In this document: positions 41,943-57,277 of the stretch, piece by piece
Layout: each line of letters opens with the position of its first letter
Position numbering within the stretch: the first letter of the stretch is position 1
Origin: an uncultured Bacilli bacterium
GTDB lineage: Bacteria; Bacillota_I; Bacilli_A; RF39; UBA660
Direction of reading: 5' to 3'
NCBI GenBank assembly: GCA_934101795.1
Contig: CAKORY010000002.1
Coordinates: forward strand, 25,200-89,199
DNA length: 64,000 nucleotides
Notes under the pieces: generated by a model
What the model was told of the DNA's origin: nothing
The model's input: the letters and a program-made list of their open reading frames with translations, nothing else
Databases searched by the model: none
Made by a program: the position numbers and the translations under genes

Positions 41943-42410
41943 ATGGCGGTGGTAGAAATGGAAGATAAATTACTTTATAATTTACATTTGTTAAATAAGC
42001 TTATTGCAAGAGAATTTATTTGTAATAATAAAGATTTATTTTGTGGTGATCCAAGTGCAACACAGATGATTATTATGAATTATATTTTAAATCATCAAAA
42101 TGAAGATATTTATCAAAAAGATTTAGAAGAAGCACTTCATTTAAGAAGAGCCACTGTTTCTGGAGTCCTTCAAACCATGGAAAAGCATGAGTTAATTGAA
42201 AGAGTTTTGTGTGATAATGATGTTAGATGTAAGAAAATTATTTTAAAAGAAAAAGCTAAGAAAATGTTTGATGTTAAAAAAATGGAATTTTTTAAATTAG
42301 AGGAAGTTATTAAAAAAGGTTTAAGTGATGAAGAAATTGAAATATTTTGTCATATAATAGAGAGTATGCAAAATAATATAAATGAGTATGCAAAGAGAAG
42401 AAAGGATTAA
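41943..42410 (+). CDS. MarR-family transcriptional regulator
   Basis: 155 aa, winged-HTH region (LEEALHLRRATVSGVLQTMEKHELIER); promoter TTGACA-17-TAATAT upstream. Confidence 0.8.
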   Translation: MAVVEMEDKLLYNLHLLNKLIAREFICNNKDLFCGDPSATQMIIMNYILNHQNEDIYQKDLEEALHLRRATVSGVLQTMEKHELIERVLCDNDVRCKKIILKEKAKKMFDVKKMEFFKLEEVIKKGLSDEEIEIFCHIIESMQNNINEYAKRRKD

Positions 42411-42412
42411 TT

Positions 42413-44176
42413 ATGTTTAAATTATTAAAAAGTTTTAGAAAAAAAGAATGGTTAATTACTATAGTTAGTGTTTGTTTAATAGTTATGCAAGTGTGGCTTG
42501 AATTAAAGATGCCTGATTATATGTCAAAAGTTACTATTTTAGTGCAAACTGAAGGTAGTAAAATGTCTGATATTTTAATAAATGGTGGATATATGCTTTT
42601 ATGTGCTTTTGGAAGTTTAGTTGGTGCTGTTATTGTTGGATATTCAATTGCGTTGTTGTCAGCTGGATTTTCTAAGAAACTTAGAGGTAAACTGTTTAGA
42701 AAAGTAGAAGAAATGTCTATGAGTGAAGTAAAAGGTTTTTCTACGAATAGTTTGATTACGAGAACTACGAATGATATTACACAAGTTGAAATGTTTGTAG
42801 GCTTTGGGTTGCAATTATTAATTAAAGCTCCAGTTACGGCGGTTTGGGCTATAACTAAAATTCTTAATAAAAGTTGGGAATGGAGTGTGGTAACATCTGT
42901 TGCTGTAGTTATTTTACTTGTTGTAATTGGCATTTTAACTATTATTGTGCTACCTAAATTTAAGATTGTACAAAAGTTAACAGATAAATTAAATGAAGTT
43001 ACAAGAGAAAATTTAACTGGTATAAGAGTAGTTAGAGCATTTAATGCGGAAGACTATCAAGAAAAGAAATTTAAAAATGTAAATGATGATTTAACTAATT
43101 TACAATTGTTTAATCAAAAATCAATGTCAATTATGTCGCCGGTTATGTATTTAATTATGTATATGTTAACACTTGTTATATATTTTATTGGGGCTTATCT
43201 TATTAAGGATGCCATGATGGCTGATAAAATAGCATTATTTGGTGATATGGTAGTTTTTTCATCTTATGCAATGCAGATTATAATGTCATTCTTGATGCTT
43301 GCTATGATATTTATGATTTTGCCAAGAGCAGAGGTTTCTGCATCTAGAATTAATGAAGTTCTTGATACTGATATAAGTGTTAAGGATGGTGATGCTCAAA
43401 CTAAAAGTGAAGTTGGTACAATTGAATTTAAAAATGTTTCGTTTAAGTATCCTGATGCCGAAGAGTATGTTTTAAGAAATATATCGTTTAAGGCAAATAA
43501 AGGAGATACTGTGGCATTTATTGGTTCTACTGGTTCAGGTAAATCGACTTTGATTAATTTAATTGTAAGATTTTATGATGTGACTGAAGGCGAAATACTT
43601 ATTGATGGTAGAAATATTAAGGATTATAAGCTTGAGTATTTATATAAGTTAATTGGTTATGTTCCTCAGAAAGCAGTTATGTTTAATGGAACAGTAAATT
43701 CTAATATTGCTTATGGTGATGCTAAAAAAGTAATATCTGATAATGAAATAAAGGAAGCAGCAAGAGTTGCACAGGCTGATGATTTTGTGTCAAAAATGGA
43801 TAATGGGTATGAATCTCATATAGCTCAAGGTGGTACGAATGTTTCTGGGGGTCAAAAACAAAGACTTGCAATTGCACGTGCTATAGCTAAAAATCCTGAA
43901 ATATATATTTTTGATGACTCATTTTCTGCTTTAGATTATAAAACTGATGCTGTTCTTCGTGAAGAATTAAAGAAATACACAAAGGATGCAACTAGTTTAA
44001 TAGTTGCTCAAAGGATTGGTACAATAATGAATGCTGATAAAATAATAGTTCTAGATAATGGAACATCTGTAGGTGTTGGTACACATGAAGAATTATTAAA
44101 AAATTGTGAAGTTTATAAAGAAATTGCTTTATCACAACTTTCAAAGGAGGAATTAGATAATGCCAAGACCAAATAG
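42413..44176 (+). CDS. ABC exporter half-transporter (TMD-NBD), heterodimer partner 1
   Basis: 6 TM + NBD: Walker A GSTGSGKST, signature VSGGQKQRLAIARA, Walker B IYIFDDSFSALD. Confidence 0.9.
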   Translation: MFKLLKSFRKKEWLITIVSVCLIVMQVWLELKMPDYMSKVTILVQTEGSKMSDILINGGYMLLCAFGSLVGAVIVGYSIALLSAGFSKKLRGKLFRKVEEMSMSEVKGFSTNSLITRTTNDITQVEMFVGFGLQLLIKAPVTAVWAITKILNKSWEWSVVTSVAVVILLVVIGILTIIVLPKFKIVQKLTDKLNEVTRENLTGIRVVRAFNAEDYQEKKFKNVNDDLTNLQLFNQKSMSIMSPVMYLIMYMLTLVIYFIGAYLIKDAMMADKIALFGDMVVFSSYAMQIIMSFLMLAMIFMILPRAEVSASRINEVLDTDISVKDGDAQTKSEVGTIEFKNVSFKYPDAEEYVLRNISFKANKGDTVAFIGSTGSGKSTLINLIVRFYDVTEGEILIDGRNIKDYKLEYLYKLIGYVPQKAVMFNGTVNSNIAYGDAKKVISDNEIKEAARVAQADDFVSKMDNGYESHIAQGGTNVSGGQKQRLAIARAIAKNPEIYIFDDSFSALDYKTDAVLREELKKYTKDATSLIVAQRIGTIMNADKIIVLDNGTSVGVGTHEELLKNCEVYKEIALSQLSKEELDNAKTK

Positions 44177-46424
44177 AGAAGTAGAAAAAGCTAAAGATTT
44201 TAAGGGCGCTATTAAAAGGTTAATTAATGAATTGTCAGGTTTTAAAAAATTAACTGTAGTTGCGTTAGTTCTAGCAGCTTTAGGTTCTATTCTTACTATA
44301 GTAACACCTGATATTTTGTCTAATTTAACTGATGAAATATCAAATGGTTTAGTTATGAATAAAGATAATTTTGAAAAAATTACAAAAGAAGTAACTGGTA
44401 GTTTAAATGAAGAAAATATTAATAAAGTTGTTAAAATAGACTTTAGTGAAAAAAATATAACAAGTATTATGATGGATAATGGTATTTCTTCAGAAGATAA
44501 GGAAAGTTTTCGTAAATTACTAGGAGAAATGCAAAGTGATTCTGGTAATAAAGTTAAGTTAATTGCTAATATTCCAGATAGTATTTTACATAAACTTGTT
44601 GTAAGCAATAAGGAAGATACCATTAAATTTATTAAGAGCTTAAATGGAAATGTTGAAATCCCAGATAGTATTGCTAAAGAAATATTTAAAGAATTTGAAA
44701 TTGATGGTGTTAAAATAAGTGTAAGTGATCAGAGGAAATTTTTGAAAATAGTTAGTGGTATGAATGAAAATATGGATGCAACTAGTATATATGCAAAAGT
44801 AGATGAAATGCCTAGTTCTATAAAAGAATTAGTTGAACCATATATGAATATTGATAAAATAGAAAATATAGCTATATTTTTGGTTACTATTTACTTGATT
44901 AGTGCAATATTTACTTATTTTGAGTCAATACTTATGTGTGATGTTTCAAATAATTTTGCTAGAAAACTACGTGGTAATATTTCAAGTAAAATAAATAGGT
45001 TGCCACTTAAATATTTTGACAAACATGCAATTGGTGATACTTTATCAAGAGTAACAAATGATGTTGATACAATTGCTCAATCTATGAATCAATCATTATC
45101 AACTTTGGTTAGTGCAATTACATTATTCGTGGGAACTACAATTATGATGTTTGTAACGAACTGGGTTATGGCTATTACAGCAATACTTGCAAGTTTATTC
45201 GGGTTTGCATTTATGGCAGTTATTTTAGGTAAATCTCAAAAATACTTTGTGGCTAAACAAAAAGAACTTGGTAATTTAAATGGACATATTGAAGAAGTAT
45301 ATTCAGGACTTAATGTAGTTAAAACATATAATGGTCAAAAAATATCAAATGAAAAGTTTGATGAATTAAATGATAAATTATATAAAGCTAATTGGAAGAG
45401 TGGTTTTTTATCTGGGCTTATGATGCCTATGATGAATTTTATTGGTAACTTTGGTTATGTTGCAGTATGCGTTGTTGGGGCACTACTTGCCTTAAATGGT
45501 TATATTAGTTTTGGAGTAATCGTTGCATTTATTGTTTATGTTAGATTATTTGTTTCTCCGCTTTCTCAAATAGCTCAAGCTATGACTAGCTTACAATCAA
45601 CTGCAGCAGCTAGTGAAAGGGTATTTGAATTTTTAGATGAAAAAGAAATGCTTGATGAAAGCAAATTAATAAAAATCTTAGATAAAAAAGAAGTAAAAGG
45701 TAATATTGAATTTAAAAATGTTGAATTTAAATATGATGGTAATGAAACTCCAACAATTAAGAATTTTAGTGCTAAAGCAAAAGCTGGCCAAAAAATAGCT
45801 ATTGTTGGACCTACAGGTGCTGGTAAGACTACGATGGTAAATTTACTTATGAAGTTCTATGATATTAATAGTGGAGAAATACTTATTGATGGTGTTTCTA
45901 CCAAAGAATTAACAAGGAATAATATTCATAGGTTGTTTACTATGGTTCTTCAAGATACTTGGGTATTTAATGGTACTGTTAGGGATAATATTGTTTATAA
46001 TGCTGAAAATATAACTGATGAAGAAGTTGAAACTGTTTGTAAAACTGTTGGACTTGACCATTTCATTAAAACGTTACCTGATGGATATAATACTATATTA
46101 AGTGATAATGATTCCATTTCTGCAGGTCAAAGACAACTTTTAACTATTGCCCGAGGTATGTTGCAAGATGCACCATTCTTAATTTTGGATGAAGCTACTA
46201 GTAATGTTGATACAAGAACTGAAGAATTAGTGCAAAAGGCAATGGATAAATTAACTCATGGTAAAACTTCATTTATTATTGCCCACAGATTATCAACAAT
46301 AAAAAATGCTGATTTAATACTTGTTATGAATAATGGTAATATAATTGAGCAAGGAAATCACGAGGATCTTATGAAACAAAAAGGTTTTTATGCCGATTTG
46401 TATAATTCACAATTTAAGTTATAA
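44160..46424 (+). CDS. ABC exporter half-transporter (TMD-NBD) with ~170-aa extracytoplasmic insertion between TM1 and TM2
   Basis: Walker A GPTGAGKTT, signature ISAGQRQLLTIARG, Walker B FLILDEATSNVD; 754 aa, long soluble segment after first TM. Confidence 0.88.
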   Translation: MPRPNREVEKAKDFKGAIKRLINELSGFKKLTVVALVLAALGSILTIVTPDILSNLTDEISNGLVMNKDNFEKITKEVTGSLNEENINKVVKIDFSEKNITSIMMDNGISSEDKESFRKLLGEMQSDSGNKVKLIANIPDSILHKLVVSNKEDTIKFIKSLNGNVEIPDSIAKEIFKEFEIDGVKISVSDQRKFLKIVSGMNENMDATSIYAKVDEMPSSIKELVEPYMNIDKIENIAIFLVTIYLISAIFTYFESILMCDVSNNFARKLRGNISSKINRLPLKYFDKHAIGDTLSRVTNDVDTIAQSMNQSLSTLVSAITLFVGTTIMMFVTNWVMAITAILASLFGFAFMAVILGKSQKYFVAKQKELGNLNGHIEEVYSGLNVVKTYNGQKISNEKFDELNDKLYKANWKSGFLSGLMMPMMNFIGNFGYVAVCVVGALLALNGYISFGVIVAFIVYVRLFVSPLSQIAQAMTSLQSTAAASERVFEFLDEKEMLDESKLIKILDKKEVKGNIEFKNVEFKYDGNETPTIKNFSAKAKAGQKIAIVGPTGAGKTTMVNLLMKFYDINSGEILIDGVSTKELTRNNIHRLFTMVLQDTWVFNGTVRDNIVYNAENITDEEVETVCKTVGLDHFIKTLPDGYNTILSDNDSISAGQRQLLTIARGMLQDAPFLILDEATSNVDTRTEELVQKAMDKLTHGKTSFIIAHRLSTIKNADLILVMNNGNIIEQGNHEDLMKQKGFYADLYNSQFKL

Positions 46425-46587
46425 AGAGTGCTTAGGCATTCTTTTTTTGAAAATGTAATAATTTATTTTTTTTACATAATGAAAGCATTTAAAACTAAGT
46501 ATTTTTATGATATACTGGAGTTGAATTTAAATTTGAAAAAACTATATATAGGTGTTATAATAATTCCTGATTTAGGAGGTGACTTTT

Positions 46588-47289
46588 TTGCATAATAAAA
46601 TTTTGGTAGCAGAAGATGATACGGATATAGTAGAACTTCTTAAACTTTATTTAGAAAGTAATGGTTTTGAAGTGACATCAACATACGATGGATTTGAAGC
46701 TTTGGATGCTTTTAAAAAAGGTAATTATGATATTATAATTGCAGATTTAATGATGCCCGGCTTAAATGGTTATGAACTTATTAAAATTGTAAGAGAAACT
46801 AGTAATATTCCTATAATTATTGTATCTGCTAAAAATATGGATAGTGATAAAGTTCTGGGACTTGATATCGGTGCTGATGCTTATATAACTAAACCATTTA
46901 ATCCTTTGGAGTTAGTTGCTTATGTTAAAGCACTTCTTCGTAGATATTATGAGTTTAAAAGTTTAAATAATGAAATTAATACCTTAAATGTTGGTGAACT
47001 TTCTCTTGATTTAAGTAAATATATTTTTATGAAAAATAATAAAATTGTGCCCCTTACATCAACTGAAATTAAAATACTTGCAATGATGATGAAGTCACCT
47101 GGTAAAGTATTTACAAGGAGCCAAATTTATGAATGTATAAATGGTAATTTTTATGATACTGATGATAATACCATGATGGTTCATATTTCAAATATAAGGG
47201 GGAAAATTGAGGATAATCCTGCAAAACCAGAGTATATAAAAACAGTTAGGGGGTTAGGTTATAAACTTGAAAATAAAGAAGAATTATAG
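46588..47289 (+). CDS. OmpR-family response regulator
   Basis: receiver domain (ILVAEDD...D...IADLMMPGLNG...K) plus winged-helix C-terminus (GYKLE); likely TTG start 10 nt after GGAGG (ORF track GTG at 46579). Confidence 0.85.
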   Translation: MHNKILVAEDDTDIVELLKLYLESNGFEVTSTYDGFEALDAFKKGNYDIIIADLMMPGLNGYELIKIVRETSNIPIIIVSAKNMDSDKVLGLDIGADAYITKPFNPLELVAYVKALLRRYYEFKSLNNEINTLNVGELSLDLSKYIFMKNNKIVPLTSTEIKILAMMMKSPGKVFTRSQIYECINGNFYDTDDNTMMVHISNIRGKIEDNPAKPEYIKTVRGLGYKLENKEEL

Positions 47290-48841
47290 TTTTAGCAAAT
47301 ATATTATTATTCAATTTGCTATTTACACATTAATTATTTTAGGGGTTGCTTTATTAACATATTTATCAATTAATTGGAGGCTTAATAATAGTTTCTTAGT
47401 ATTGGATGATTTTCTTCTTTATAAAGAAAAACTTGAGTATGAAGATTATGATGGTATTCCAATGTCTAAGTTTCCTGGCTGCGATTTTGCCATATATGAT
47501 GAAAATAATGAACTTATTTTTACAACTGATGGTGATGTAAATGATATTGTTGAAGGTGATGACTTAGAGTTTGTTAACGATTATAGTGGAACTTATTATT
47601 ATAATATTTTTAATTACAAAGAAAAAAATAGAGATAAAATATATAAAATATATAAAACCACATATGATGCTGAAATTGATGAAGAAATAGTTATTGGTAA
47701 TGCTAAATTAAATGAAGACTTGGAAATAGTTGATGGCAATCTTTTTAATGAGAAAAATAGCTTAACTGAAAGAGAACTTAATTTACTAAATGGTTATTAT
47801 AATGATGAACAAATGGTAGAAAAGTATGAATATGTAACATCTGGTAATGGATTAAAGAGAACTTTGCTTTTTATGTCACCGACATTTACTGCGGAAAGCT
47901 ATGATTCTGCGGTTTCTGATTCTAGTAACGTGTGGTTTATTTCTATTCCAATTTTGATAATTATTATTATAATTGAAACTTATATATTTAATCGTAGAGT
48001 TAAAAAAATCTTAAAAGAATTAAATAAAGTTATTTCATCTTATGAAAATGAAGAAATTATTGTAAATGATACGAATTTACCAAAGGAATTTGATGAAGTT
48101 GCAGAAAGTTTTGAAAATTTAATGGAAAAATTAAAAAAATCAAATGCAGAAAAAATTAAAATTTATGAAGATAAACAAAAATCTATTGCTAATTTATCTC
48201 ATGATTTAAAAACCCCCCTTACTGTTATTAGTGGGTACTCAAAAGCATTTTTAGATGATTTGGTTCCTGATAATAAGAAAAGACAATATATGGAGAGTAT
48301 CAATAAGAAAGCGTGCGTTGCAACAGATGCTATTGATTCATTGTTTTTATATACACATATGAATAATTCAGAGTATAGTTTATGTAGAGAAAAAATAGAT
48401 ATAGTAACATTTACTAAAGAATATTTAGCGGAAAAATATAATGAAATTGAATCTGCTGGTATGTATTTAGAAGTAGATATTAAAGTGAATAAAATAATGT
48501 TTGATGCTGATAAAAATGCTTTCAGAAGAATATATGAGAATATAATAAATAATTCTATTAAATATAATAAAAAAGGAACTAAGATATATTTTAAAATGTG
48601 GAAAGATAAAACGTTAAATATAGTAATCGGAGATGATGGCATTGGAATTGATAAAGAAATAAAAGATAGATTATTTGAACCATTTGTTACAAGTAATAAA
48701 GCTAGGACATCTGGTGAAGGTACTGGACTGGGACTTGCAATTGTTAAAAACTTTGTAGAACTTCATGATGGTGAAATAGTTTTAGTAAGTAAAGCACATA
48801 GAAAAATGAAGACCGAGTTTTTAATGAAATTTAAAATTTAA
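47267..48841 (+). CDS. Sensor histidine kinase with ~170-aa extracytoplasmic sensor domain
   Basis: two TM segments flanking periplasmic-type domain; H-box LSHDLKTPLT; HATPase motifs GDDGIGI, GTGLGLAIV. Confidence 0.85.
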   Translation: MKIKKNYSFSKYIIIQFAIYTLIILGVALLTYLSINWRLNNSFLVLDDFLLYKEKLEYEDYDGIPMSKFPGCDFAIYDENNELIFTTDGDVNDIVEGDDLEFVNDYSGTYYYNIFNYKEKNRDKIYKIYKTTYDAEIDEEIVIGNAKLNEDLEIVDGNLFNEKNSLTERELNLLNGYYNDEQMVEKYEYVTSGNGLKRTLLFMSPTFTAESYDSAVSDSSNVWFISIPILIIIIIIETYIFNRRVKKILKELNKVISSYENEEIIVNDTNLPKEFDEVAESFENLMEKLKKSNAEKIKIYEDKQKSIANLSHDLKTPLTVISGYSKAFLDDLVPDNKKRQYMESINKKACVATDAIDSLFLYTHMNNSEYSLCREKIDIVTFTKEYLAEKYNEIESAGMYLEVDIKVNKIMFDADKNAFRRIYENIINNSIKYNKKGTKIYFKMWKDKTLNIVIGDDGIGIDKEIKDRLFEPFVTSNKARTSGEGTGLGLAIVKNFVELHDGEIVLVSKAHRKMKTEFLMKFKI

Positions 48842-48920
48842 TAAGTAATTTGTTGCTAAAATAAAACAAGTATATACATGTATATACTTGTTTTTATGCT
48901 GTAATAAATAACAATATAAG

Positions 48921-49148: not shown

Positions 49149-50633
49149 ATGAAAAGCGTATTAGAATATTTAGAAAATATTAGTAATGATAATAAAGTAA
49201 TTGATAAAAATGGAAGTATTACTTATAAAGACTTGCAAGTGGTTAGTAAAAAAATAGGTAGTGGACTTGCAAAGTATGTTAAAAATAATGCCCCCGTTCC
49301 AGTTTATATGGAAAAAGGAATTTCTTGTCTTGAAGTTTTTATGGGAAGTTTGTATGCTGGTGGCTTTTATAGTTTACTTAATGCTGGACTTCCAAAAATG
49401 AGGCTTGAACAAATAATTAATGTTTTAGATGTAGATTATGTAGTAACTGATAAAGAACATTTGGAAAATGCTAAAGAATTTTTTCCTGATAAGGAGTTAA
49501 TACTTTATGAAGACTTGGTTGATAGTGAAATAGATGATGAATCGCTTTCTAATATTAGAGCTAGAAAACTTGATGTTGATCCTGTTTATGCAAATTTTAC
49601 AAGTGGTTCAACAGGTGTACCTAAAGGAGTTGTGGTTGGAAATCGTTCAATAATTGATTTTATAGATAATTTTACAAGTACCTTTGGGATTAATGAAACT
49701 GATATTATTGCTAATCAAGCCCCATTTGATTTTGATGTTTCTGTTAAAGATATATATCCAGCTTTAAAAACAGGAGCAACACTTGTTATTGTTCCTAAAG
49801 AATTATTTTCAAGACCTGCGGAGCTTATTGATTTTTTGGTAGAACATAAAGTTACAACGATGACTTGGGCAGTGTCTGCACTTTGCTTAATTTCGACATT
49901 TCATGGTTTAGATTATAAAGTGCCTGAAACAGTTAAAAGAGTTATGTTTAGTGGTGAAGTTATGCCAATGAAACATTTAAAAGAATGGATGAAACACTTA
50001 CCAAATGCAACTTTTGTTAATTTGTACGGGCCCACTGAAATTACATGTAATTGTACTTATCATATTATTGATAGAAATCGTGAATATGAAAAAATACCTG
50101 TTGGTATACCATTTAATAATGAAGATGTTTTCTTGTTAGATGAAAATAATAAATTGGTTGAAATTAGCGGAATAAAAGGGGAAATATGTGTTAGAGGCAG
50201 TGCACTTGCACTTGGTTATTATAAAAATAAAGAACAAACTGATAGAGCATTTGTTAGAAATCCATTAAATGATAAGTATATAGAATATATTTATAGAACT
50301 GGAGATCTAGGTTATTATGAAAATAATGATTTGTATTTTGGAGGAAGAAAAGATTTTCAAATAAAATATATGGGACATAGAATTGAGCTAGAAGAAATAG
50401 ATAAAGCTATTGGTAGTTTTGATGGTGTAGAAAGAGTTTGTTCTATATTTAAAGAAGAAAAAAGTAAACTTTATGCCTTTTATATTGGTGACATTGAAGT
50501 AAAAGAATTACATGAAAAGTTATCTAAAGAGTTACCAGTATTTATGATACCTAGTAAATTTGTTAAATTAGAACAAATGCCTTTAACTAAGAATGGTAAG
50601 ATTGATAGAAAGAAATTGGAGGAATTTATATGA
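49149..50633 (+). CDS. DltA-like carrier-protein ligase (stand-alone adenylation domain, ANL superfamily)
   Basis: adenylation core motifs FTSGSTGVPKGV, YGPTE, GEICVRGSALALGYY, YRTGD, GRKDFQIKYMGHRIELEEID, LTKNGKIDRKKL; 494 aa like DltA. Confidence 0.8.
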   Translation: MKSVLEYLENISNDNKVIDKNGSITYKDLQVVSKKIGSGLAKYVKNNAPVPVYMEKGISCLEVFMGSLYAGGFYSLLNAGLPKMRLEQIINVLDVDYVVTDKEHLENAKEFFPDKELILYEDLVDSEIDDESLSNIRARKLDVDPVYANFTSGSTGVPKGVVVGNRSIIDFIDNFTSTFGINETDIIANQAPFDFDVSVKDIYPALKTGATLVIVPKELFSRPAELIDFLVEHKVTTMTWAVSALCLISTFHGLDYKVPETVKRVMFSGEVMPMKHLKEWMKHLPNATFVNLYGPTEITCNCTYHIIDRNREYEKIPVGIPFNNEDVFLLDENNKLVEISGIKGEICVRGSALALGYYKNKEQTDRAFVRNPLNDKYIEYIYRTGDLGYYENNDLYFGGRKDFQIKYMGHRIELEEIDKAIGSFDGVERVCSIFKEEKSKLYAFYIGDIEVKELHEKLSKELPVFMIPSKFVKLEQMPLTKNGKIDRKKLEEFI

Positions 50634-51808
50634 TAGATAGTAAAACTATTGAAAGTATTGGAACACCATTTTATGTATTTGATATTGATGTTTTGAAAAA
50701 CAGAATAAATTATCTTAAAAGTATGTTGCCAGAAAATGTTCATTTATGTTTTGCAATGAAAGCTAATCCTTTTGTAGTTAAAGAAATAGAGGATACTATA
50801 GAAAAGTATGAAATATGTTCTTATGGTGAATGGAATATTGCAAATGAGCTTGGAGTTACACATGAAAAAATGGTTATATCAGGTGTTTATAAAGATGAAA
50901 CTAGCATGATAGATATAATTAATCATTATAAACATGGTGAAGTTATTACAATTGAATCATTAAATCAAATAAAATTAGTTGATAAAATAACTAAAGATAA
51001 AAATGTTGTCGTGGATGTAATTTTAAGACTTACAAGTGGTAATCAATTTGGTATGAGTGAAGAAGAAATAATATCCATTTTGGAAAATAGATCAAAATAT
51101 AATATGTTAAATATTATGGGTATTCAATATTTTTCGGGAACTCAAAAAAAATTATCAAGAAGAATTATAAAAGAACTTGAATATGTTGATGACTTTGTTC
51201 AAAAATTAAAAAATGAATTAGGTTTTGTAACTGAAGAATTAGAGTTTGGTCCTGGTTTTCCCGTTATGTATTTTGAAGCAGAAACTGATTTTGATGAAAA
51301 TACATACTTAATGGAAATTGCTGATAAGATAAAAAATTTGAAATATCAAGGTCATATTACAATGGAACTTGGAAGAAGTATTGCGGCATCATGTGGAAGT
51401 TATTATACTAAAGTTGTTGATAAAAAAACAAATAAAGAAGGAAATTTTGCTATTTTAGATGGTGGTATGCATCATATTGTGTATTATGGTCAAATGATGG
51501 CAATGAAAAAACCGATGTTGGATATAATTCCTAGAAGAAGTGGAAATGAAGAAAATTGGAACTTAGTTGGAGCATTATGTACAATTAATGATTTAATTGT
51601 TAAAGGATTACCTGTTAAAAGTTTAGAACTTGGTGATGTTTTTGTTTTTAAAAACACTGGTGCTTATGCTATGACTGAAGGAATTAGTTTATTCTTAAGT
51701 CGTGATTTACCTAAAGTTTTATTTGTTAAAGATGGTAAAATAGAAGTGGTTAGAAGTAATATTCAAACTTATAAATTAAATATGCCATTTAAAGGAGGTG
51801 AAAATTAA
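50630..51808 (+). CDS. Fold-type III PLP-dependent decarboxylase (Orn/DAP/Arg decarboxylase family, LysA-like)
   Basis: GTPFYVFDIDVL... FAMKANPF (PLP-Lys), CSYGE, D-GGM..., ELGRS (EPGR-like), C-terminal GALCTINDLIV (CESGD-like) motifs. Confidence 0.7.
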   Translation: MIDSKTIESIGTPFYVFDIDVLKNRINYLKSMLPENVHLCFAMKANPFVVKEIEDTIEKYEICSYGEWNIANELGVTHEKMVISGVYKDETSMIDIINHYKHGEVITIESLNQIKLVDKITKDKNVVVDVILRLTSGNQFGMSEEEIISILENRSKYNMLNIMGIQYFSGTQKKLSRRIIKELEYVDDFVQKLKNELGFVTEELEFGPGFPVMYFEAETDFDENTYLMEIADKIKNLKYQGHITMELGRSIAASCGSYYTKVVDKKTNKEGNFAILDGGMHHIVYYGQMMAMKKPMLDIIPRRSGNEENWNLVGALCTINDLIVKGLPVKSLELGDVFVFKNTGAYAMTEGISLFLSRDLPKVLFVKDGKIEVVRSNIQTYKLNMPFKGGEN

Positions 51809-52038
51809 TGGAAAAATTAATAGAAATATTAGAAGATTTAAATCCAGAAGTTGATTATAATACATGTACTAATTTAATAGATGGACATTATTTAGACTCA
51901 CTTGCAATTTTATCACTTGTTGCTGAAATTGAAGAAGAATTTGATGTTGTAATTCCAACAGTTGAAATAATTCCTAGTAATTTTAACTCAGCTCAAAGTT
52001 TATGGAGCCTAATTGAAAGATTAAAGGAAGAAGATTAG
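51808..52038 (+). CDS. DltC-like acyl/peptidyl carrier protein
   Basis: 76 aa; phosphopantetheine attachment motif YLDSLAILSLVAEIEEEF closely parallels DltC LLDSFGTVELLLAIENRF. Confidence 0.75.
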   Translation: MEKLIEILEDLNPEVDYNTCTNLIDGHYLDSLAILSLVAEIEEEFDVVIPTVEIIPSNFNSAQSLWSLIERLKEED

Positions 52039-52039
52039 T

Positions 52040-53626
52040 ATGCAATATTGTAGTTTAGTTTATTTGGTTGCTTTTTTGCCAATTACACTATTAATATATG
52101 CTTTAACTAATAAGAAGAAAAGATGGCTTGTTTTACTTATGGCAAGCTATATTTTCTTTTTATCTTTAAGTGGTAAGTTAATTGTGTATTTACTATTTTC
52201 TACACTTTCAATTCATCATTTTGGATTATGGCTTGATAGATTAAATAAAGATAGAGATAAAGAAGTAGAGTTAAATAAGGAAAATAAAAAAGAAATAAAA
52301 GAATTATATAAGAAAAGAATGGGGAGAGTAGTGTTTCTTGCAGTACTTATTCATATTGGTTTGTTAGTATGTTTAAAATATACAGGCTTTTTTGGTGAAA
52401 ATATTAATAATTTATTAGAAATTTTAAATTTTGATTTTAGATTTAAGATACCTAAAATATTAATACCTATTGGTATATCTTTTTATACTTTGCAAGGACT
52501 TTCTTATATATTTGATGTTTACAAAGGGAAAATTGATGCTGATTTTAATTTAGGTAGACTTGCTTTATTTATGTCATTTTTTCCATGTATTATGGAAGGG
52601 CCAATTTGTAGATATAGCGATACTGCAACTAAACTTTATGATGGTGAAGATTTAACTTACAAAAATTTGGCTTTTGGTTCTCAAAGAATACTATGGGGAT
52701 TATTTAAGAAAATGATTATTGCTGATAGGCTTAACCCTTTTATAGAAAAAATATTTTGTGAATATAATTCCTTGGATGGTGGAGTAATACTTTTGGGGGC
52801 AATATTTTATACAATTCAGCTTTATGCAGATTTTTCTGGTACAATTGATGTTGTAATAGGTTCTGGTGAACTGTTTGGAATATCTTTGCCTGAAAATTTT
52901 AGACAACCATTCTTTAGTAAGAATATATCTGATTTTTGGACAAGATGGCATATTACTTTGGGAACTTGGTTTAGGGATTATATCTTTTATCCAGTTTCGC
53001 TTTCTAAACCTATGAAGAAAATGACCCTTAATTTAAGAAAAATTTTAGGTAATCATTTTGGACCTTTGGTAGCTGGAAGTGTAGCACTTTTATGTGTTTG
53101 GCTTTCAAATGGATTATGGCATGGAGCAGCATGGACTTTTGTTTTCTTCGGTATATATCATTTTATACTTATTGTTTTAGGTAATATTTTTACACCACTT
53201 ATTATTAATATTTGTAAAAGATGGCATATTACTAGAACTAGTAAGCCATATGTGATTATGCAAATATTTAAAACTAGTATTTTAGTTGTATTTGGAGAGC
53301 TTTTCTTTAGAGCAACTACTTTATCAAGTGGTTTTGCAATGTTCAAAAAAATATTTACTGATTTTAGTTTTAATTCATTAAAAACTGGTTCAATTTTTAA
53401 ACTTGGATGTGATAGAGCCGATTTTACAATTATTTTACTTGCTTTAGTTATTATATTTATGGTTGGATTACTTAAAGAAAAAGGCTTTAATGTAAGGGAA
53501 TTAGTTGCAAAGCAAAATATATTTGTTAGATGGACTTTGTATTATTTGCTAATTATTGCTATTGTAATTTTTGGAGCTTATGGGTTTGGTTATGCACCAG
53601 TTGACCCAATATATGCTAATTTTTAG
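52040..53626 (+). CDS. MBOAT-family membrane-bound acyl/aminoacyl transferase (DltB/AlgI-like)
   Basis: 528 aa multi-TM; MBOAT His motifs FWTRWHITLGTWFRDYIFYP and NGLWHGAAW. Confidence 0.85.
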   Translation: MQYCSLVYLVAFLPITLLIYALTNKKKRWLVLLMASYIFFLSLSGKLIVYLLFSTLSIHHFGLWLDRLNKDRDKEVELNKENKKEIKELYKKRMGRVVFLAVLIHIGLLVCLKYTGFFGENINNLLEILNFDFRFKIPKILIPIGISFYTLQGLSYIFDVYKGKIDADFNLGRLALFMSFFPCIMEGPICRYSDTATKLYDGEDLTYKNLAFGSQRILWGLFKKMIIADRLNPFIEKIFCEYNSLDGGVILLGAIFYTIQLYADFSGTIDVVIGSGELFGISLPENFRQPFFSKNISDFWTRWHITLGTWFRDYIFYPVSLSKPMKKMTLNLRKILGNHFGPLVAGSVALLCVWLSNGLWHGAAWTFVFFGIYHFILIVLGNIFTPLIINICKRWHITRTSKPYVIMQIFKTSILVVFGELFFRATTLSSGFAMFKKIFTDFSFNSLKTGSIFKLGCDRADFTIILLALVIIFMVGLLKEKGFNVRELVAKQNIFVRWTLYYLLIIAIVIFGAYGFGYAPVDPIYANF

Positions 53627-53635
53627 GGAGGTATT

Positions 53636-54604
53636 ATGAAGGAAGGTTATAAACCAATAGTTTTCGTTATTATTCTATTTTTTATACTGCTTGGAATTTC
53701 ACATTTTTTTGTTCCTAAAAGTAATGCTAAAGGTAATGGTATTCATGAAGCTCGTGCAAATGGTGTTTTTGGTGAAGCAAAAGATACTATTGATGTTTTA
53801 GTAATTGGAGATAGTGAGTCTTTTACAAGTATTTCTCCATTACCTATTTGGAATAAATATGGTTTTACTATGTATAATGGTGGTGTTTCAAGACAATATT
53901 TGGTTGATACATATGATTATTTAAATAAAGTTTTAAAAAATCAAAGTCCAAAGGTTGTACTTCTTGAAGCAAATGCTATTTATAGAAAAATGAATGTTAA
54001 TAACGTGTTATCAACAAAAAGTCAAAGCATTTTACCAATTTTTCAATATCATGATAGATGGAAGAGTATGACAAGTAATGATTTTACTAAAAAAATAAAA
54101 TATACATGGACTGATGAATTAAAAGGTTTTTATTATAATATAAGTGTTGTTCCACCAAAAAGTGTAGGAGATTATATGAAAAATAATAAAAAAAGAACCG
54201 GTATAAGTTCTATTAATAAATACTATTTAGATAAAATAATTGATAAATGTCATCAAAAAAATATTAAAATAATTTTATACACTGTTCCTAGTACCCTTAA
54301 TTGGAATGAAAAAAGAGATGAAGAAGTTACAAAATATGCCAAAAGTAAAAATATTGAATATTTAGATTTAAATTTATTGGTTAATGAACTGGGAATAGAT
54401 TGGAATCAGGATTCTCGTGATGGTGGGGACCATTTAAATTATTATGGTGCTGTTAAAGTTACGGAATTTATGGGTAAATATTTATATGATTTAAATATAC
54501 TTCCAAATCATAAAGGTGATGCTAAATATGATAGTTGGAATAAAGCCTATGAAAAATATGAAAATAAGATACTTAGTAAAAGTATAAGTGTAACTAATAT
54601 TTAA
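53636..54604 (+). CDS. SGNH/DHHW-like extracytoplasmic transferase (DltD/AlgX-N-like partner of MBOAT)
   Basis: N-terminal TM anchor; SGNH block I VLVIGDSESF, QYHDRW (DHHW-like), block V DGGDHLN. Confidence 0.6.
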   Translation: MKEGYKPIVFVIILFFILLGISHFFVPKSNAKGNGIHEARANGVFGEAKDTIDVLVIGDSESFTSISPLPIWNKYGFTMYNGGVSRQYLVDTYDYLNKVLKNQSPKVVLLEANAIYRKMNVNNVLSTKSQSILPIFQYHDRWKSMTSNDFTKKIKYTWTDELKGFYYNISVVPPKSVGDYMKNNKKRTGISSINKYYLDKIIDKCHQKNIKIILYTVPSTLNWNEKRDEEVTKYAKSKNIEYLDLNLLVNELGIDWNQDSRDGGDHLNYYGAVKVTEFMGKYLYDLNILPNHKGDAKYDSWNKAYEKYENKILSKSISVTNI

Positions 54605-54672
54605 TAAGAAAATTTGTTGTATAATTATTTTGGTATATGAAAAGAGATGTTTTGTTCTCACATGTCTTCACA

Positions 54673-54707
54673 AATTTCTTATCAGTAATTGATAAGAAAT
54701 TTTTTTG
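54673..54707 (+). terminator. AT-rich perfect palindrome + T-run (terminator or operator)
   Basis: aaatttcttatca gtaat tgataagaaattt tttt; 13-bp arms. Confidence 0.4.
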
Positions 54708-54886
54708 ATGAATAATCATCGTAATAAATGCGCTTTTTTAGAACAAAATTACATCGTGGCGTAATAAATTAGTTTGAAAGATTTATTATTTTAATGTAAT
54801 CATGGTATAAAATTATTTAAATTATTAAAATATGTAAATTAATCACTTATTATTATATATTTCATAATATATTTTAGGTGATAAAC

Positions 54887-56086
54887 ATGGATGAAAGAGC
54901 TATAAAAAAGGTGGTTTTGGATAGTGGTCATGGTGGGGAAGATCCAGGTACTATAGCTAATGGAATAACTGAAAAAGATTATACTCTTAAGATTAGTGAA
55001 TATATTCATAAAAGATTGGATGAAATGGGTGTGCCCAATAAAATGACTAGAACTAGTGATGTTACTCTGACACCTAGTGAAAGGCCTAAGAAGGTACAAA
55101 GTTTTTATGGTAATGGCAGTGATGTAATTGTTGTGTCTAATCATATAAATGCAGGTGGTGGCGATGGTGCTGAAATTATTTATGCCCTTAGAAATAATGA
55201 TACATTTGCTAGAAAAATAGCAAATGAATTTGAAAATGCTGGCCAAAATGTTAGAAAATATTATCAAAGAAGACTTCCTAGTAATCCTGCTAAAGATTAT
55301 TATTATATAATGCGTGATACTCCAAATAATGAAACTGTTATTGTAGAATATGGTTTTGCTGATTCTACAGGTGATGATATTTCTCAACTTAAAAATAATT
55401 GGGAAAAATTAGCGGAAGCAGTAACTAAAGCAATTGTGGAATATGCTGGGGGAAAATATGTTGCTCCGCTTGATTCTAATTATTATACTGTTAAAAGTGG
55501 TGATAGTTTATGGAGTATTTCTAGAAAATTTGGTATTACTGTTGATGAGCTTAAAAATGCAAATAATTTATCTAGTAATTTACTTAGTGTAGATCAAAAT
55601 TTAATTATTCCTGGAAAAGATCTTGATGCTATTGGTGAAGAATATGTTGTTAAAAAGGGAGATACTTTATATAGTATAGCTAGAAAATATAATACGAGTG
55701 TTGATAACCTTAAATCTATCAACAATATAATAACTGATTCACTTGCAATTGGTCAAATAATTAAGTTGCCATCAACAAGTAATGTTGCAAGTGATACATA
55801 TATTGTAAAAAAAGGAGATAGTTTATATAGTATTGCAAGAACTTATAATACAAGTGTCGATAAGTTAAAAGAAATTAATAATTTAACTTCAAATGCCTTG
55901 GCTATTGGGCAAGTTCTTAAGCTACCTAGCAGTAATGCAAGTGGAAATGTAGTATATACTGTTAAAAAAGGAGATAGCCTTTATAGTATTGCAAGAGAAT
56001 ATGGAACTACTGTTGATGCAATAAAAAAACTTAATAATATAACATCTAATACTCTTAGTATAGGACAAAAACTATTGTTACCTTAA
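54887..56086 (+). CDS. N-acetylmuramoyl-L-alanine amidase (Amidase_3) with four C-terminal LysM repeats
   Basis: VVLDSGHGGEDPGT Amidase_3 motif; four ~45-aa LysM repeats (YTVK[KS]GD[ST]L[WY]SIAR...). Confidence 0.85.
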   Translation: MDERAIKKVVLDSGHGGEDPGTIANGITEKDYTLKISEYIHKRLDEMGVPNKMTRTSDVTLTPSERPKKVQSFYGNGSDVIVVSNHINAGGGDGAEIIYALRNNDTFARKIANEFENAGQNVRKYYQRRLPSNPAKDYYYIMRDTPNNETVIVEYGFADSTGDDISQLKNNWEKLAEAVTKAIVEYAGGKYVAPLDSNYYTVKSGDSLWSISRKFGITVDELKNANNLSSNLLSVDQNLIIPGKDLDAIGEEYVVKKGDTLYSIARKYNTSVDNLKSINNIITDSLAIGQIIKLPSTSNVASDTYIVKKGDSLYSIARTYNTSVDKLKEINNLTSNALAIGQVLKLPSSNASGNVVYTVKKGDSLYSIAREYGTTVDAIKKLNNITSNTLSIGQKLLLP

Positions 56087-56161
56087 CAATAGTTTTTTGA
56101 TAAATGCCAGATTTTCACCAGAAAATACCATTAAACGGTATTTTCTAGTGAAATTATGCTA

Positions 56162-56803
56162 TTATTTTATTTTTTTCTTTCTATTTAAATTAGGAAAAGC
56201 TTTTAGTATTCTTTCGTAAACATATAAGTCATTTTTAATAAATTTAGAAATGGCTTTTTTTATATCAATCGTTGAGTCTTTCTTGTCTTTGGCAACTAGT
56301 TTTATTTTAAATACTATAATTAAAGAAATTACAATGTCTACGATAAAAATTGTGATTAAAATTATTGATATTATAAGTATTACTTTTAAAGAAAAATTAT
56401 TCATAACATTTATAAGATATGGTGTTACATATTTTATGGCAAGAGCTCCGAGTATTGAAAATGGGGTCATTGTTTCAAGACATATTCTACCATTAAGGTT
56501 ATATTTCATGTTTGTATAATCCCACCACCTTAATTTAAATATTTTTTCCATGATATAGCTAGTAGTATATTCTAGTAAAGAACAAATGAACATTGTTAAA
56601 ATAAATAATACTATAAAATTATTAGTATAACTTTTTAAAAGAAAATATAAAAGTAATGAACCAAAGCCATATATTGGACAACATGGACCAAGTAAAAAGC
56701 CTCGATTGACAAATTTATGTTCATTATAAAGACTTAAGATTACTTCCATAAGCCAACCTAAAAAGGAATAAATAAAAAATAATATAGAATAAGTATAGAA
56801 CAT
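56162..56803 (-). CDS. Membrane protein of putative ABC-transporter type IV (CmpB-like) family
   Basis: N-terminal FIYSFLGWLMEVI...NRGFLLGPCCPIYGFG pattern typical of PF06541-type proteins; 213 aa. Confidence 0.45.
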   Translation of the reverse strand: MFYTYSILFFIYSFLGWLMEVILSLYNEHKFVNRGFLLGPCCPIYGFGSLLLYFLLKSYTNNFIVLFILTMFICSLLEYTTSYIMEKIFKLRWWDYTNMKYNLNGRICLETMTPFSILGALAIKYVTPYLINVMNNFSLKVILIISIILITIFIVDIVISLIIVFKIKLVAKDKKDSTIDIKKAISKFIKNDLYVYERILKAFPNLNRKKKIK

Positions 56804-56854
56804 AATATCCTCCTTGATACTTATTATACATTATTTTAAAAAATATTCTATATT

Positions 56855-57277
56855 TTAATGAATTTTTTTGCAAACTCCAGGGTCGGGATTATAGAAACAA
56901 TGACTTTTGTAGCTTCCTGCTAGGTCTTGATTATACCAAGTTTGTTTGCATGATGCACCTTTTGTAGGTGAATAAAACCATAAAGCATTAGTAGCTGGAT
57001 GATAGTATTCACCTCGGACTATTCTTTTTGCTAGTTGTTTTTCAAGAGTAGTTGATTCAGCATTAAATAATGATGAAGTAGCCCCAGTAAATTGATTTTT
57101 TTGATAAATAACATCACGAATATTGTTTACATTTTTAAAAGTTAAACAATCTGCTAAAACTCTATTGGCCACAACGTTTCCAACCATTAACATTCCAAGG
57201 TTTCCTTCGCCGAGTGCCTCAGCCCGCATTATTCTTGCCAGTAAATCCAGTTCTCGATCTGTATAAGTAAAAAGCAT
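56855..57277 (-). CDS. cwlJ: Spore cortex-lytic cell wall hydrolase, CwlJ/SleB catalytic-domain family (Hydrolase_2)
   Basis: 140 aa; DLLARIMRAEALGEG...MVGNVVANRV...NQFT core of Hydrolase_2 domain. Confidence 0.7.
   Translation of the reverse strand: MLFTYTDRELDLLARIMRAEALGEGNLGMLMVGNVVANRVLADCLTFKNVNNIRDVIYQKNQFTGATSSLFNAESTTLEKQLAKRIVRGEYYHPATNALWFYSPTKGASCKQTWYNQDLAGSYKSHCFYNPDPGVCKKIH

Follow-up and report, generated by a model that had tools for sequence, protein, structure and literature searches.

What acyl group does a Dlt-like operon handle when a decarboxylase gene is embedded in it, and what would it decorate? The question is raised by five genes at positions 49149–54604 of a 64,000-nucleotide stretch of DNA (the window) from an uncultured Bacilli bacterium (assembly GCA_934101795.1, contig CAKORY010000002.1). 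An earlier note on this DNA had described them as tightly packed or overlapping, and had seen in them the logic of dltABCD put to use on an amino acid other than D-alanine. We found all five open reading frames (ORFs) on the + strand, and that logic holds: adenylation, a carrier thioester, an MBOAT (membrane-bound O-acyltransferase), then a putative extracytoplasmic transferase follow one another. Checked ORF by ORF, Pfam profiles support an AMP-binding enzyme (A), both domains of a fold-III pyridoxal phosphate (PLP) decarboxylase (DC), a PP-binding carrier protein (CP) and the MBOAT, while the fifth protein (ORF5) gives sub-threshold matches only. From sequence comparison and by analogy with characterized pathways, we put at roughly 60% the probability that this is a self-contained operon aminoacylating a cell-envelope polymer, in which aspartate or glutamate is loaded through its side chain, decarboxylated on the carrier and then exported.

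The adenylation enzyme (49149–50633, + strand, 494 amino acids) matches Pfam AMP-binding with 204 bits, and its solved relatives are adenylation domains of nonribosomal peptide synthetases (NRPSs) and DltA. Among NCBIfam models it scores 308 bits with TIGR01733, and 284 and 299 bits with the DltA models TIGR01734 (cut-off 560) and NF003417 (cut-off 476). The specificity code was mapped by aligning A to GrsA-PheA (1amu) and to the DltA proteins of Bacillus subtilis and Bacillus cereus, the sequences having been verified in the PDB. At the ten code positions (235, 236, 239, 278, 299, 301, 322, 330, 331 and 517 in GrsA numbering) A reads D-V-K-T-M-S-L-C-N-K, as against D-L-M-T-M-C-T-V-A-K in the two DltA proteins. 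Six of the ten positions are thus changed, and Cys269 is replaced by Ser and Met200 by Lys among them. In DltA, contacts with D-alanine are made by Leu198, Met200, Cys269 and Val301 (PMC11253843); of these and Asp197 in B. cereus DltA, A keeps only the Asp, the other four being Val, Lys, Ser and Cys. Over 76 homologues of A with a median identity of 58%, the code shows almost no variation (DVK[TVAS][LM]SLCNK) and Lys239 is invariant. This near-constancy speaks for a single conserved substrate other than D-alanine, and the difference from DltA bears out the view of the earlier note that this is not a D-alanine operon. Lys239 is used by glutamate-activating NRPS domains, and its invariance in A argues for an acidic substrate; it also suggests that the loaded substrate still bears a second carboxylate. 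The pocket, lined by Lys239, Leu/Met299, Ser301 and Leu322, looks shallow.

What the decarboxylase (50630–51808, + strand, 392 amino acids; Pfam Orn_Arg_deC_N and Orn_DAP_Arg_deC) acts on is suggested by its relatives. The best solved one is BtrK, the L-glutamyl-[BtrI ACP] decarboxylase of butirosin biosynthesis (E = 4e-32), with which DC aligns over its full length; diaminopimelate (DAP) decarboxylases start at 6e-21, 11 orders of magnitude behind. DC and BtrK have DGGMHH and LCT in common where the DAP decarboxylase of Helicobacter pylori has DAGMND...RP..Y and CES. The DAP-binding motifs CES and RPxxY, which bind the distal end of diaminopimelate, are replaced in DC by CTI and HHIVYY. The best NCBIfam match, TIGR03099 for an exosortase-A-associated decarboxylase (182 bits, cut-off 478), ranks ahead of the lysA model TIGR01048 (167 bits, cut-off 298). 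Among homologues Lys44 (the PLP lysine), Cys317 (catalytic) and a GAY motif are invariant. We rejected DC as a DAP decarboxylase on its score below the lysA cut-off and its BtrK versions of the DAP motifs, and the earlier suggestion of a diamino acid made or edited by this enzyme is disfavoured by the invariant pocket Lys of A and the likeness to BtrK. An alanine racemase, which the earlier note had weighed against its own decarboxylase reading, was likewise rejected: the racemase N-barrel gives a weak match (Ala_racemase_N, 31 bits), the C-terminal domain is the sheet domain of decarboxylases (50 bits) and not that of racemases, and the BtrK alignment spans the whole protein.

DC has Gln at residue 166 (GIQYFSGTQ), where BtrK (GIHVYTGTQ) and most of the distant homologues aligned have His. 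We take this position to be that of an active-site His in related decarboxylases; the Gln is conserved in at least 97% of 81 cassette loci. Searching plasmids for mobile copies, we met no relative above 31% identity; those found belong to natural-product-like clusters, and these more distant relatives also adjoin carrier proteins. On a conjugative plasmid of Bacillus mycoides (NZ_CP150649.1; L082:1-11619), an ATP-grasp gene is followed by uvrB, uvrA and an amidohydrolase gene and, further on, by genes for a decarboxylase resembling BtrK (31% identity), an acyl-CoA dehydrogenase-like protein, a carrier and AcpS, a set that resembles the 4-amino-2-hydroxybutyrate (AHBA) side-chain cassette of butirosin. 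One long homologue considered as a possible fusion (P0140, 1,046 amino acids) joins a decarboxylase to surface-protein domains and was set aside as a probable miscall.

The carrier protein (51808–52038, + strand, 76 amino acids) matches Pfam PP-binding with 21.7 bits, barely over the cut-off. Its phosphopantetheine attachment site, the serine on whose conservation the earlier note had made its interpretation depend, is Ser31 (LDSL) and is invariant in all 78 homologues. Type II peptidyl carrier proteins and DltC come closest to it among solved structures, and against the DltC equivalog models CP scores 29 bits (cut-off 68) and 17 bits (cut-off 52).

The MBOAT (52040–53626, + strand, 528 amino acids; Pfam MBOAT, 53.5 bits) carries the RWHITL and GLWHG motifs quoted earlier, as ORF5 does GDSESF, YHDRW and DGGDH. 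The earlier note had likened it to AlgI, a comparison that we do not uphold: its PDB matches are to DltB only (8jem and 6bug, E = 4e-24), as is its NCBIfam relative (TIGR04091, 158 bits, cut-off 375), and its AlgI-like length comes from extra C-terminal helices. The protein is about 100 residues longer than DltB, and these additional hydrophobic segments end in DPIYANF-COOH, which includes Tyr525. In Dlt systems an acyl-shuttle hexapeptide, FxYxxF, is borne by DltX, while in PatA-type enzymes it lies at the MBOAT's own C-terminus; its Tyr passes the acyl group on to the SGNH partner (PMC12148441). The tail found here matches the hexapeptide except at the first residue, which is Pro instead of Phe. 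Of the 76 full-length MBOAT ORFs of the loci, 73 end in P[IML]YAxF, two in FVYMQF and one in PMYANY, and His304 (of RWHITL), His361, Tyr525 and Phe528 are at least 97% conserved. No DltX-like small ORF was seen in or around the operon or elsewhere in the window, so that the earlier remark that dltX is absent is right as to the gene; its function, on this evidence, appears to be fused onto the C-terminal end of the MBOAT in the form of P-x-Y-A-x-F. A shuttle motif fused to the C-terminal helices would explain why the protein comes close to AlgI in length and why dltX is missing.

The last gene (53636–54604, + strand, 322 amino acids) encodes a membrane-anchored extracytoplasmic protein, the anchor being N-terminal. 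ORF5 matched no Pfam or NCBIfam family above threshold (Lipase_GDSL_2 is sub-threshold only), and of 40 homologues searched against Pfam, 16 gave sub-threshold GDSL-lipase matches and nothing else. Ser60 (GDSE), Asp262, His266 (GDH) and an H139-x-R-W-K motif are nevertheless invariant, and Ser and His stand in the canonical SGNH order. Modelling of ORF5 gives an SGNH fold with confidence. Neither DltD nor DHHW was among the Pfam matches of ORF5. The DHHW-like final enzyme of the earlier note was accordingly given up in favour of a canonical SGNH protein, which we propose as the final acyltransferase of the pathway.

The same five genes recur widely. Taking one representative per 50%-identity cluster and an E value of 1e-30 or better, we found 284 clusters related to DC, and a scan of one genome per species yielded at least 588 species genomes with a relative. 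Gene order was read in the 80 best loci, each from a different species genome. The genes of the adenylase-decarboxylase-carrier-MBOAT arrangement, which the earlier note had proposed to survey, recur together with the fifth gene in all 80; the order A-DC-CP-MBOAT-SGNH is kept in nearly every contig long enough, at pairwise identities down to 29–50%. The five-gene arrangement is therefore far beyond chance. Clostridia are represented, and the hosts include Agathobaculum, Flintibacter, Pseudoflavonifractor, Acetobacterium, Catenibacillus, Lachnospiraceae and Oscillospiraceae, as well as Erysipelotrichales-like Bacilli, Streptococcus suis SSHP-D (L068) and the Coriobacteriia Collinsella and Gordonibacter.

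Variants of the arrangement are few. A, DC and CP follow one another in every complete locus except two from Oscillospiraceae/Clostridia (L038:305-8544 and L045:4535-12782), which read A-DC-MBOAT-SGNH-CP-MBOAT-SGNH; the presence of two MBOAT/SGNH pairs beside one A/DC/CP set suggests that a single acyl donor supplies two distinct acceptors. In Longicatena sp. and [Eubacterium] hominis (L077:3740-9407 and L081:3737-9391) the order is permuted to MBOAT-SGNH-A-DC-CP and the SGNH partner is longer (376–382 amino acids) and weakly similar; these are likely the loci of the two MBOATs that end in FVYMQF. A metagenome-assembled genome (MAG) of Candidatus Onthomonas has two tandem copies of the SGNH gene 3' of the MBOAT gene (L019:7776-9709). 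One further locus, on a 20-kb contig of a Muribaculaceae MAG (CAZWKF010000012.1, L058), has A, DC, CP, MBOAT and a two-component system and stops before the SGNH gene. Every other host is Gram-positive, and the placement of this contig in a Bacteroidota bin is probably a binning error and less likely the result of transfer.

How might these parts work together? Ligase-carrier-PLP decarboxylase trios are known from the biosynthesis of butirosin (BtrJ/I/K), fluvirucin (FlvN/L/O), vicenistatin (VinN/L/O) and closthioamide (CtaD/E/F), in which Glu, Asp or 3-methyl-Asp is tethered by its side-chain carboxyl and then α-decarboxylated on the carrier, giving a 4-aminobutyryl (GABA), β-alanyl or 3-aminoisobutyryl thioester (PMC11350588, PMC11284099). 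Decarboxylation on the carrier is probably also what DC performs, by analogy with these trios, given its homology to BtrK, the position of its gene between those of A and CP, the invariant Lys of the A pocket and the distant relatives that lie beside carriers. From gene content, homologies, conserved catalytic residues and synteny, we infer the following order of steps, amino acid and acceptor. A would activate Asp (likeliest) or Glu (second) and load its side-chain carboxyl onto the phosphopantetheine of Ser31 of CP, and DC would then strip the free α-carboxylate, leaving β-alanyl-S-carrier, or 4-aminobutyryl-S-carrier if the substrate is Glu. The MBOAT would take the acyl group from CP at the cytoplasmic face, using His304, and pass it to its own Tyr525 outside, the C-terminal tail serving as a built-in equivalent of DltX. 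Finally, Ser60 of ORF5 would accept the acyl group and hand it on to a hydroxyl group on an envelope polymer, for which teichoic acid, peptidoglycan and wall polysaccharide are the candidates; the result would be a free primary amine and a positive charge. A 4-aminobutyryl thioester lactamizes easily, and the Btr pathway guards its amine with a second glutamyl group. Since the pocket seems shallow and the operon has no second ligase that would protect the amine, the β-alanyl product is favoured over the 4-aminobutyryl one.

Several observations weigh against this mechanism. Lys239 would equally fit ordinary α-carboxyl activation of Asp or Glu, which would leave an α-decarboxylase no substrate. 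Activation of β-amino acids by VinN-type enzymes is marked by a β13–β14 loop one residue shorter and by Lys330/Arg331, which serve the free carboxylate (PMC11253843), whereas A has no gap in this loop relative to GrsA or DltA, carries Cys330/Asn331 and keeps Asp235; its Val236 and Ser301 are compatible with VinN-type enzymes and not diagnostic. No teichoic-acid, peptidoglycan or polysaccharide genes that might supply the acceptor are consistently linked in the flanks, and we found no report of β-alanyl or 4-aminobutyryl esters on wall polymers in the literature searched.

In another reading, DC would work on a free metabolite before adenylation, turning meso-DAP into L-Lys or free Asp/Glu into β-Ala/GABA, with A loading the product. 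Gene order cannot fix reaction order, DC does score with the lysA model, and its homologues are named 'diaminopimelate decarboxylase' by their sources. We still judge this unlikely: the lysA score is under the cut-off, the motifs are those of BtrK and not CES or DAGMND..RP..Y, and the invariant pocket Lys would repel Lys or ornithine and would find no partner in β-Ala or GABA; nor does the code of A resemble the known β-Ala code, VDWVISLADK. Decarboxylation on the carrier could also be directed at another substrate, be it meso-diaminopimelate (giving lysyl-S-carrier), aminoadipate or 3-methylaspartate, given that the fold-III family includes the decarboxylase of the distal DAP centre and that Lys239 could bind a distal carboxylate. 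With the DAP-specific motifs missing from DC, a pocket that appears shallow and lysine freely available, so that its synthesis on a carrier offers no obvious gain, we regard such a substrate as decidedly improbable.

The remaining alternatives concern the acceptor and the identity of the system as a whole. The same machinery might serve a membrane glycolipid, a lipid, a secreted protein or a small molecule and not a wall polymer, a possibility consistent with the lack of consistently linked polymer-synthesis genes and with the natural-product clusters in which this carrier-linked decarboxylase clade is otherwise found. Against it, all characterized bacterial tyrosine-shuttle MBOATs with an SGNH partner acylate an envelope polymer (PMC12148441), the operon holds no polyketide synthase (PKS), NRPS, condensation or thioesterase genes, and occurrence in hundreds of species with variable flanks is more like a housekeeping envelope module, so that we consider a non-polymer acceptor improbable. 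A diverged but ordinary dlt operon, D-alanylating teichoic acid with DC as its alanine racemase, might be read from the Ala_racemase_N match and from the DltA, DltB and DltC models among the best NCBIfam matches. Every Dlt model score is far under its cut-off, however; the pocket changes include the D-Ala selector Cys269, the decarboxylase sheet domain and the full-length BtrK alignment do not suit a racemase, and the cassette is present in S. suis (L068), a species with a canonical dlt operon. On sequence grounds, plain D-alanylation is essentially excluded. Export of an Asp- or Glu-derived acyl group made on the carrier remains our preferred interpretation.

The layout of the locus fits a self-contained unit. 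A and DC overlap by 4 nt (ATGA) and DC and CP by 1 nt, while gaps of 1 nt and 9 nt separate CP from MBOAT and MBOAT from ORF5. Upstream, a perfect AT-rich palindrome of 32 nt with a T-rich stretch after it (48863–48894, + strand; fold of −12.8 kcal/mol) is probably a terminator between the preceding two-component genes and the cassette; downstream, folding of the spacer 54605–54877 gave a hairpin with a 13-bp stem followed by TTTTTTT (54672–54706, + strand), which probably terminates the five-gene operon. Given these overlaps, short gaps and bracketing hairpins, the five genes look like a single transcription unit. Within the 307-nt leader, an Rfam search for a T-box or riboswitch at E values up to 1 returned spurious miRNA matches only, and a promoter scan did no better than on shuffled sequence. 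None of the five genes has a paralogue within the window, whose G+C content is about 27% and which matches, at 96–98% protein identity, uncultured Bacilli of gut and rumen that go under the labels Erysipelotrichaceae or 'Tenericutes'. The locus is also present, in identical form, in a public assembly.

The earlier note had placed a dedicated two-component system and ABC exporter upstream, and the two fare differently. An OmpR-family response regulator (46579–47289, + strand; Pfam Response_reg and Trans_reg_C) is followed by a histidine kinase (47267–48841, + strand; HisKA and HATPase_c) with hydrophobic segments at residues 9–37 and 215–245, that is, two transmembrane segments on either side of an extracytoplasmic loop some 180 residues long. 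Of the 63 loci with enough upstream DNA, 35 have a homologue of the kinase or the regulator no more than 3 kb away, and regulator homologues adjoin the cassette, co-directionally or divergently, in 32 loci, so that the adjacent two-component system with its extracytoplasmic sensor probably controls expression of the cassette. ABC half-transporters recur in only 17 of the same 63 loci. In the window the two half-transporter genes (42413–46424, encoding 587 and 754 amino acids) lie upstream of the two-component genes and are abutted by a MarR-family gene (41943–46424 for all three), and the 754-residue protein is unusual in that about 200 residues are inserted ahead of its transmembrane domain. 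Given their own MarR gene and their limited recurrence, the exporter genes are probably not dedicated to the cassette, and together with the MarR gene they look like an independent efflux operon. Leaving aside the two-component genes and the less frequent ABC exporters, the flanks hold unrelated housekeeping genes. Immediately downstream in the window (54878–57277) is a gene for an Amidase_3 protein that carries four LysM repeats (+ strand), followed by genes for a putative ABC component of the CmpB type and a SleB-like Hydrolase_2 protein (− strand). The Amidase_3 gene adjoins the cassette in close relatives only, and these cell-wall enzymes show that this 'Tenericutes'-labelled lineage has peptidoglycan.

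The cassette combines features of several known systems and matches none of them. Like DltABCD/DltX it has a stand-alone adenylation enzyme, a small carrier, a DltB-homologous MBOAT with a catalytic His, a Tyr shuttle and a membrane-anchored SGNH protein, and its product would bear a free amine; unlike that system it has a changed A pocket, a decarboxylase gene between the A and CP genes, a shuttle fused to the MBOAT C-terminus in place of a separate dltX and an SGNH protein outside Pfam families, including that of DltD, with all Dlt equivalog scores under their cut-offs. With the Btr, Flv, Vin and Cta trios it shares a ligase, a stand-alone carrier and a fold-III decarboxylase, DC being homologous to BtrK with the same motifs. 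Those trios feed a PKS, an NRPS or an aminoglycoside acyltransferase, whereas here an MBOAT/SGNH export pair lies downstream; the ligase here is an NRPS/DltA-like adenylation domain without the VinN loop deletion or Lys330/Arg331, and the amine-protecting second ligase of Btr and Vin has no counterpart in the cassette. PatA/PatB and AlgI/AlgJ/AlgX resemble it in pairing an MBOAT of about 500 amino acids, which bears its own C-terminal shuttle-Tyr hexapeptide, with an extracytoplasmic SGNH transferase, but they O-acetylate from acetyl-CoA without carrier, adenylation enzyme or decarboxylase, and their hexapeptide begins with Phe where that of the cassette has Pro. The exosortase A-associated pair TIGR03098/TIGR03099, of unknown function, also joins an AMP-forming ligase to a fold-III decarboxylase; the cassette scores 159 bits (cut-off 592) and 182 bits with these two models, its hosts are Gram-positive, and the annotated flanking genes included neither a PEP-CTERM nor an exosortase gene. 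We found no description of the cassette in the literature searched, which leaves out most subscription journals.

Resistance to cationic antimicrobial peptides, autolysis and interaction with the host all depend in large part on teichoic acid D-alanylation, which is also a drug target. Tentatively, and at somewhat less than even odds, we suggest that hundreds of gut- and animal-associated Gram-positive species, including some S. suis, esterify an envelope polymer with non-proteinogenic ω-aminoacyl groups (β-alanyl or 4-aminobutyryl) made by decarboxylation of carrier-bound Asp or Glu, using a DltB-like MBOAT with its own Tyr shuttle and a new SGNH family, and that a dedicated two-component system controls the process. 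If so, this would be a second, chemically distinct pathway of charge modification beside D-alanylation and lysyl-phosphatidylglycerol, and an unrecognized envelope modification in many gut Firmicutes and Coriobacteriia that are uncultured or little studied. Carrier-dependent MBOAT chemistry would extend past D-alanine, an unannotated SGNH family would gain a function, and on-carrier decarboxylation, known from antibiotic biosynthesis only, would serve primary envelope physiology.

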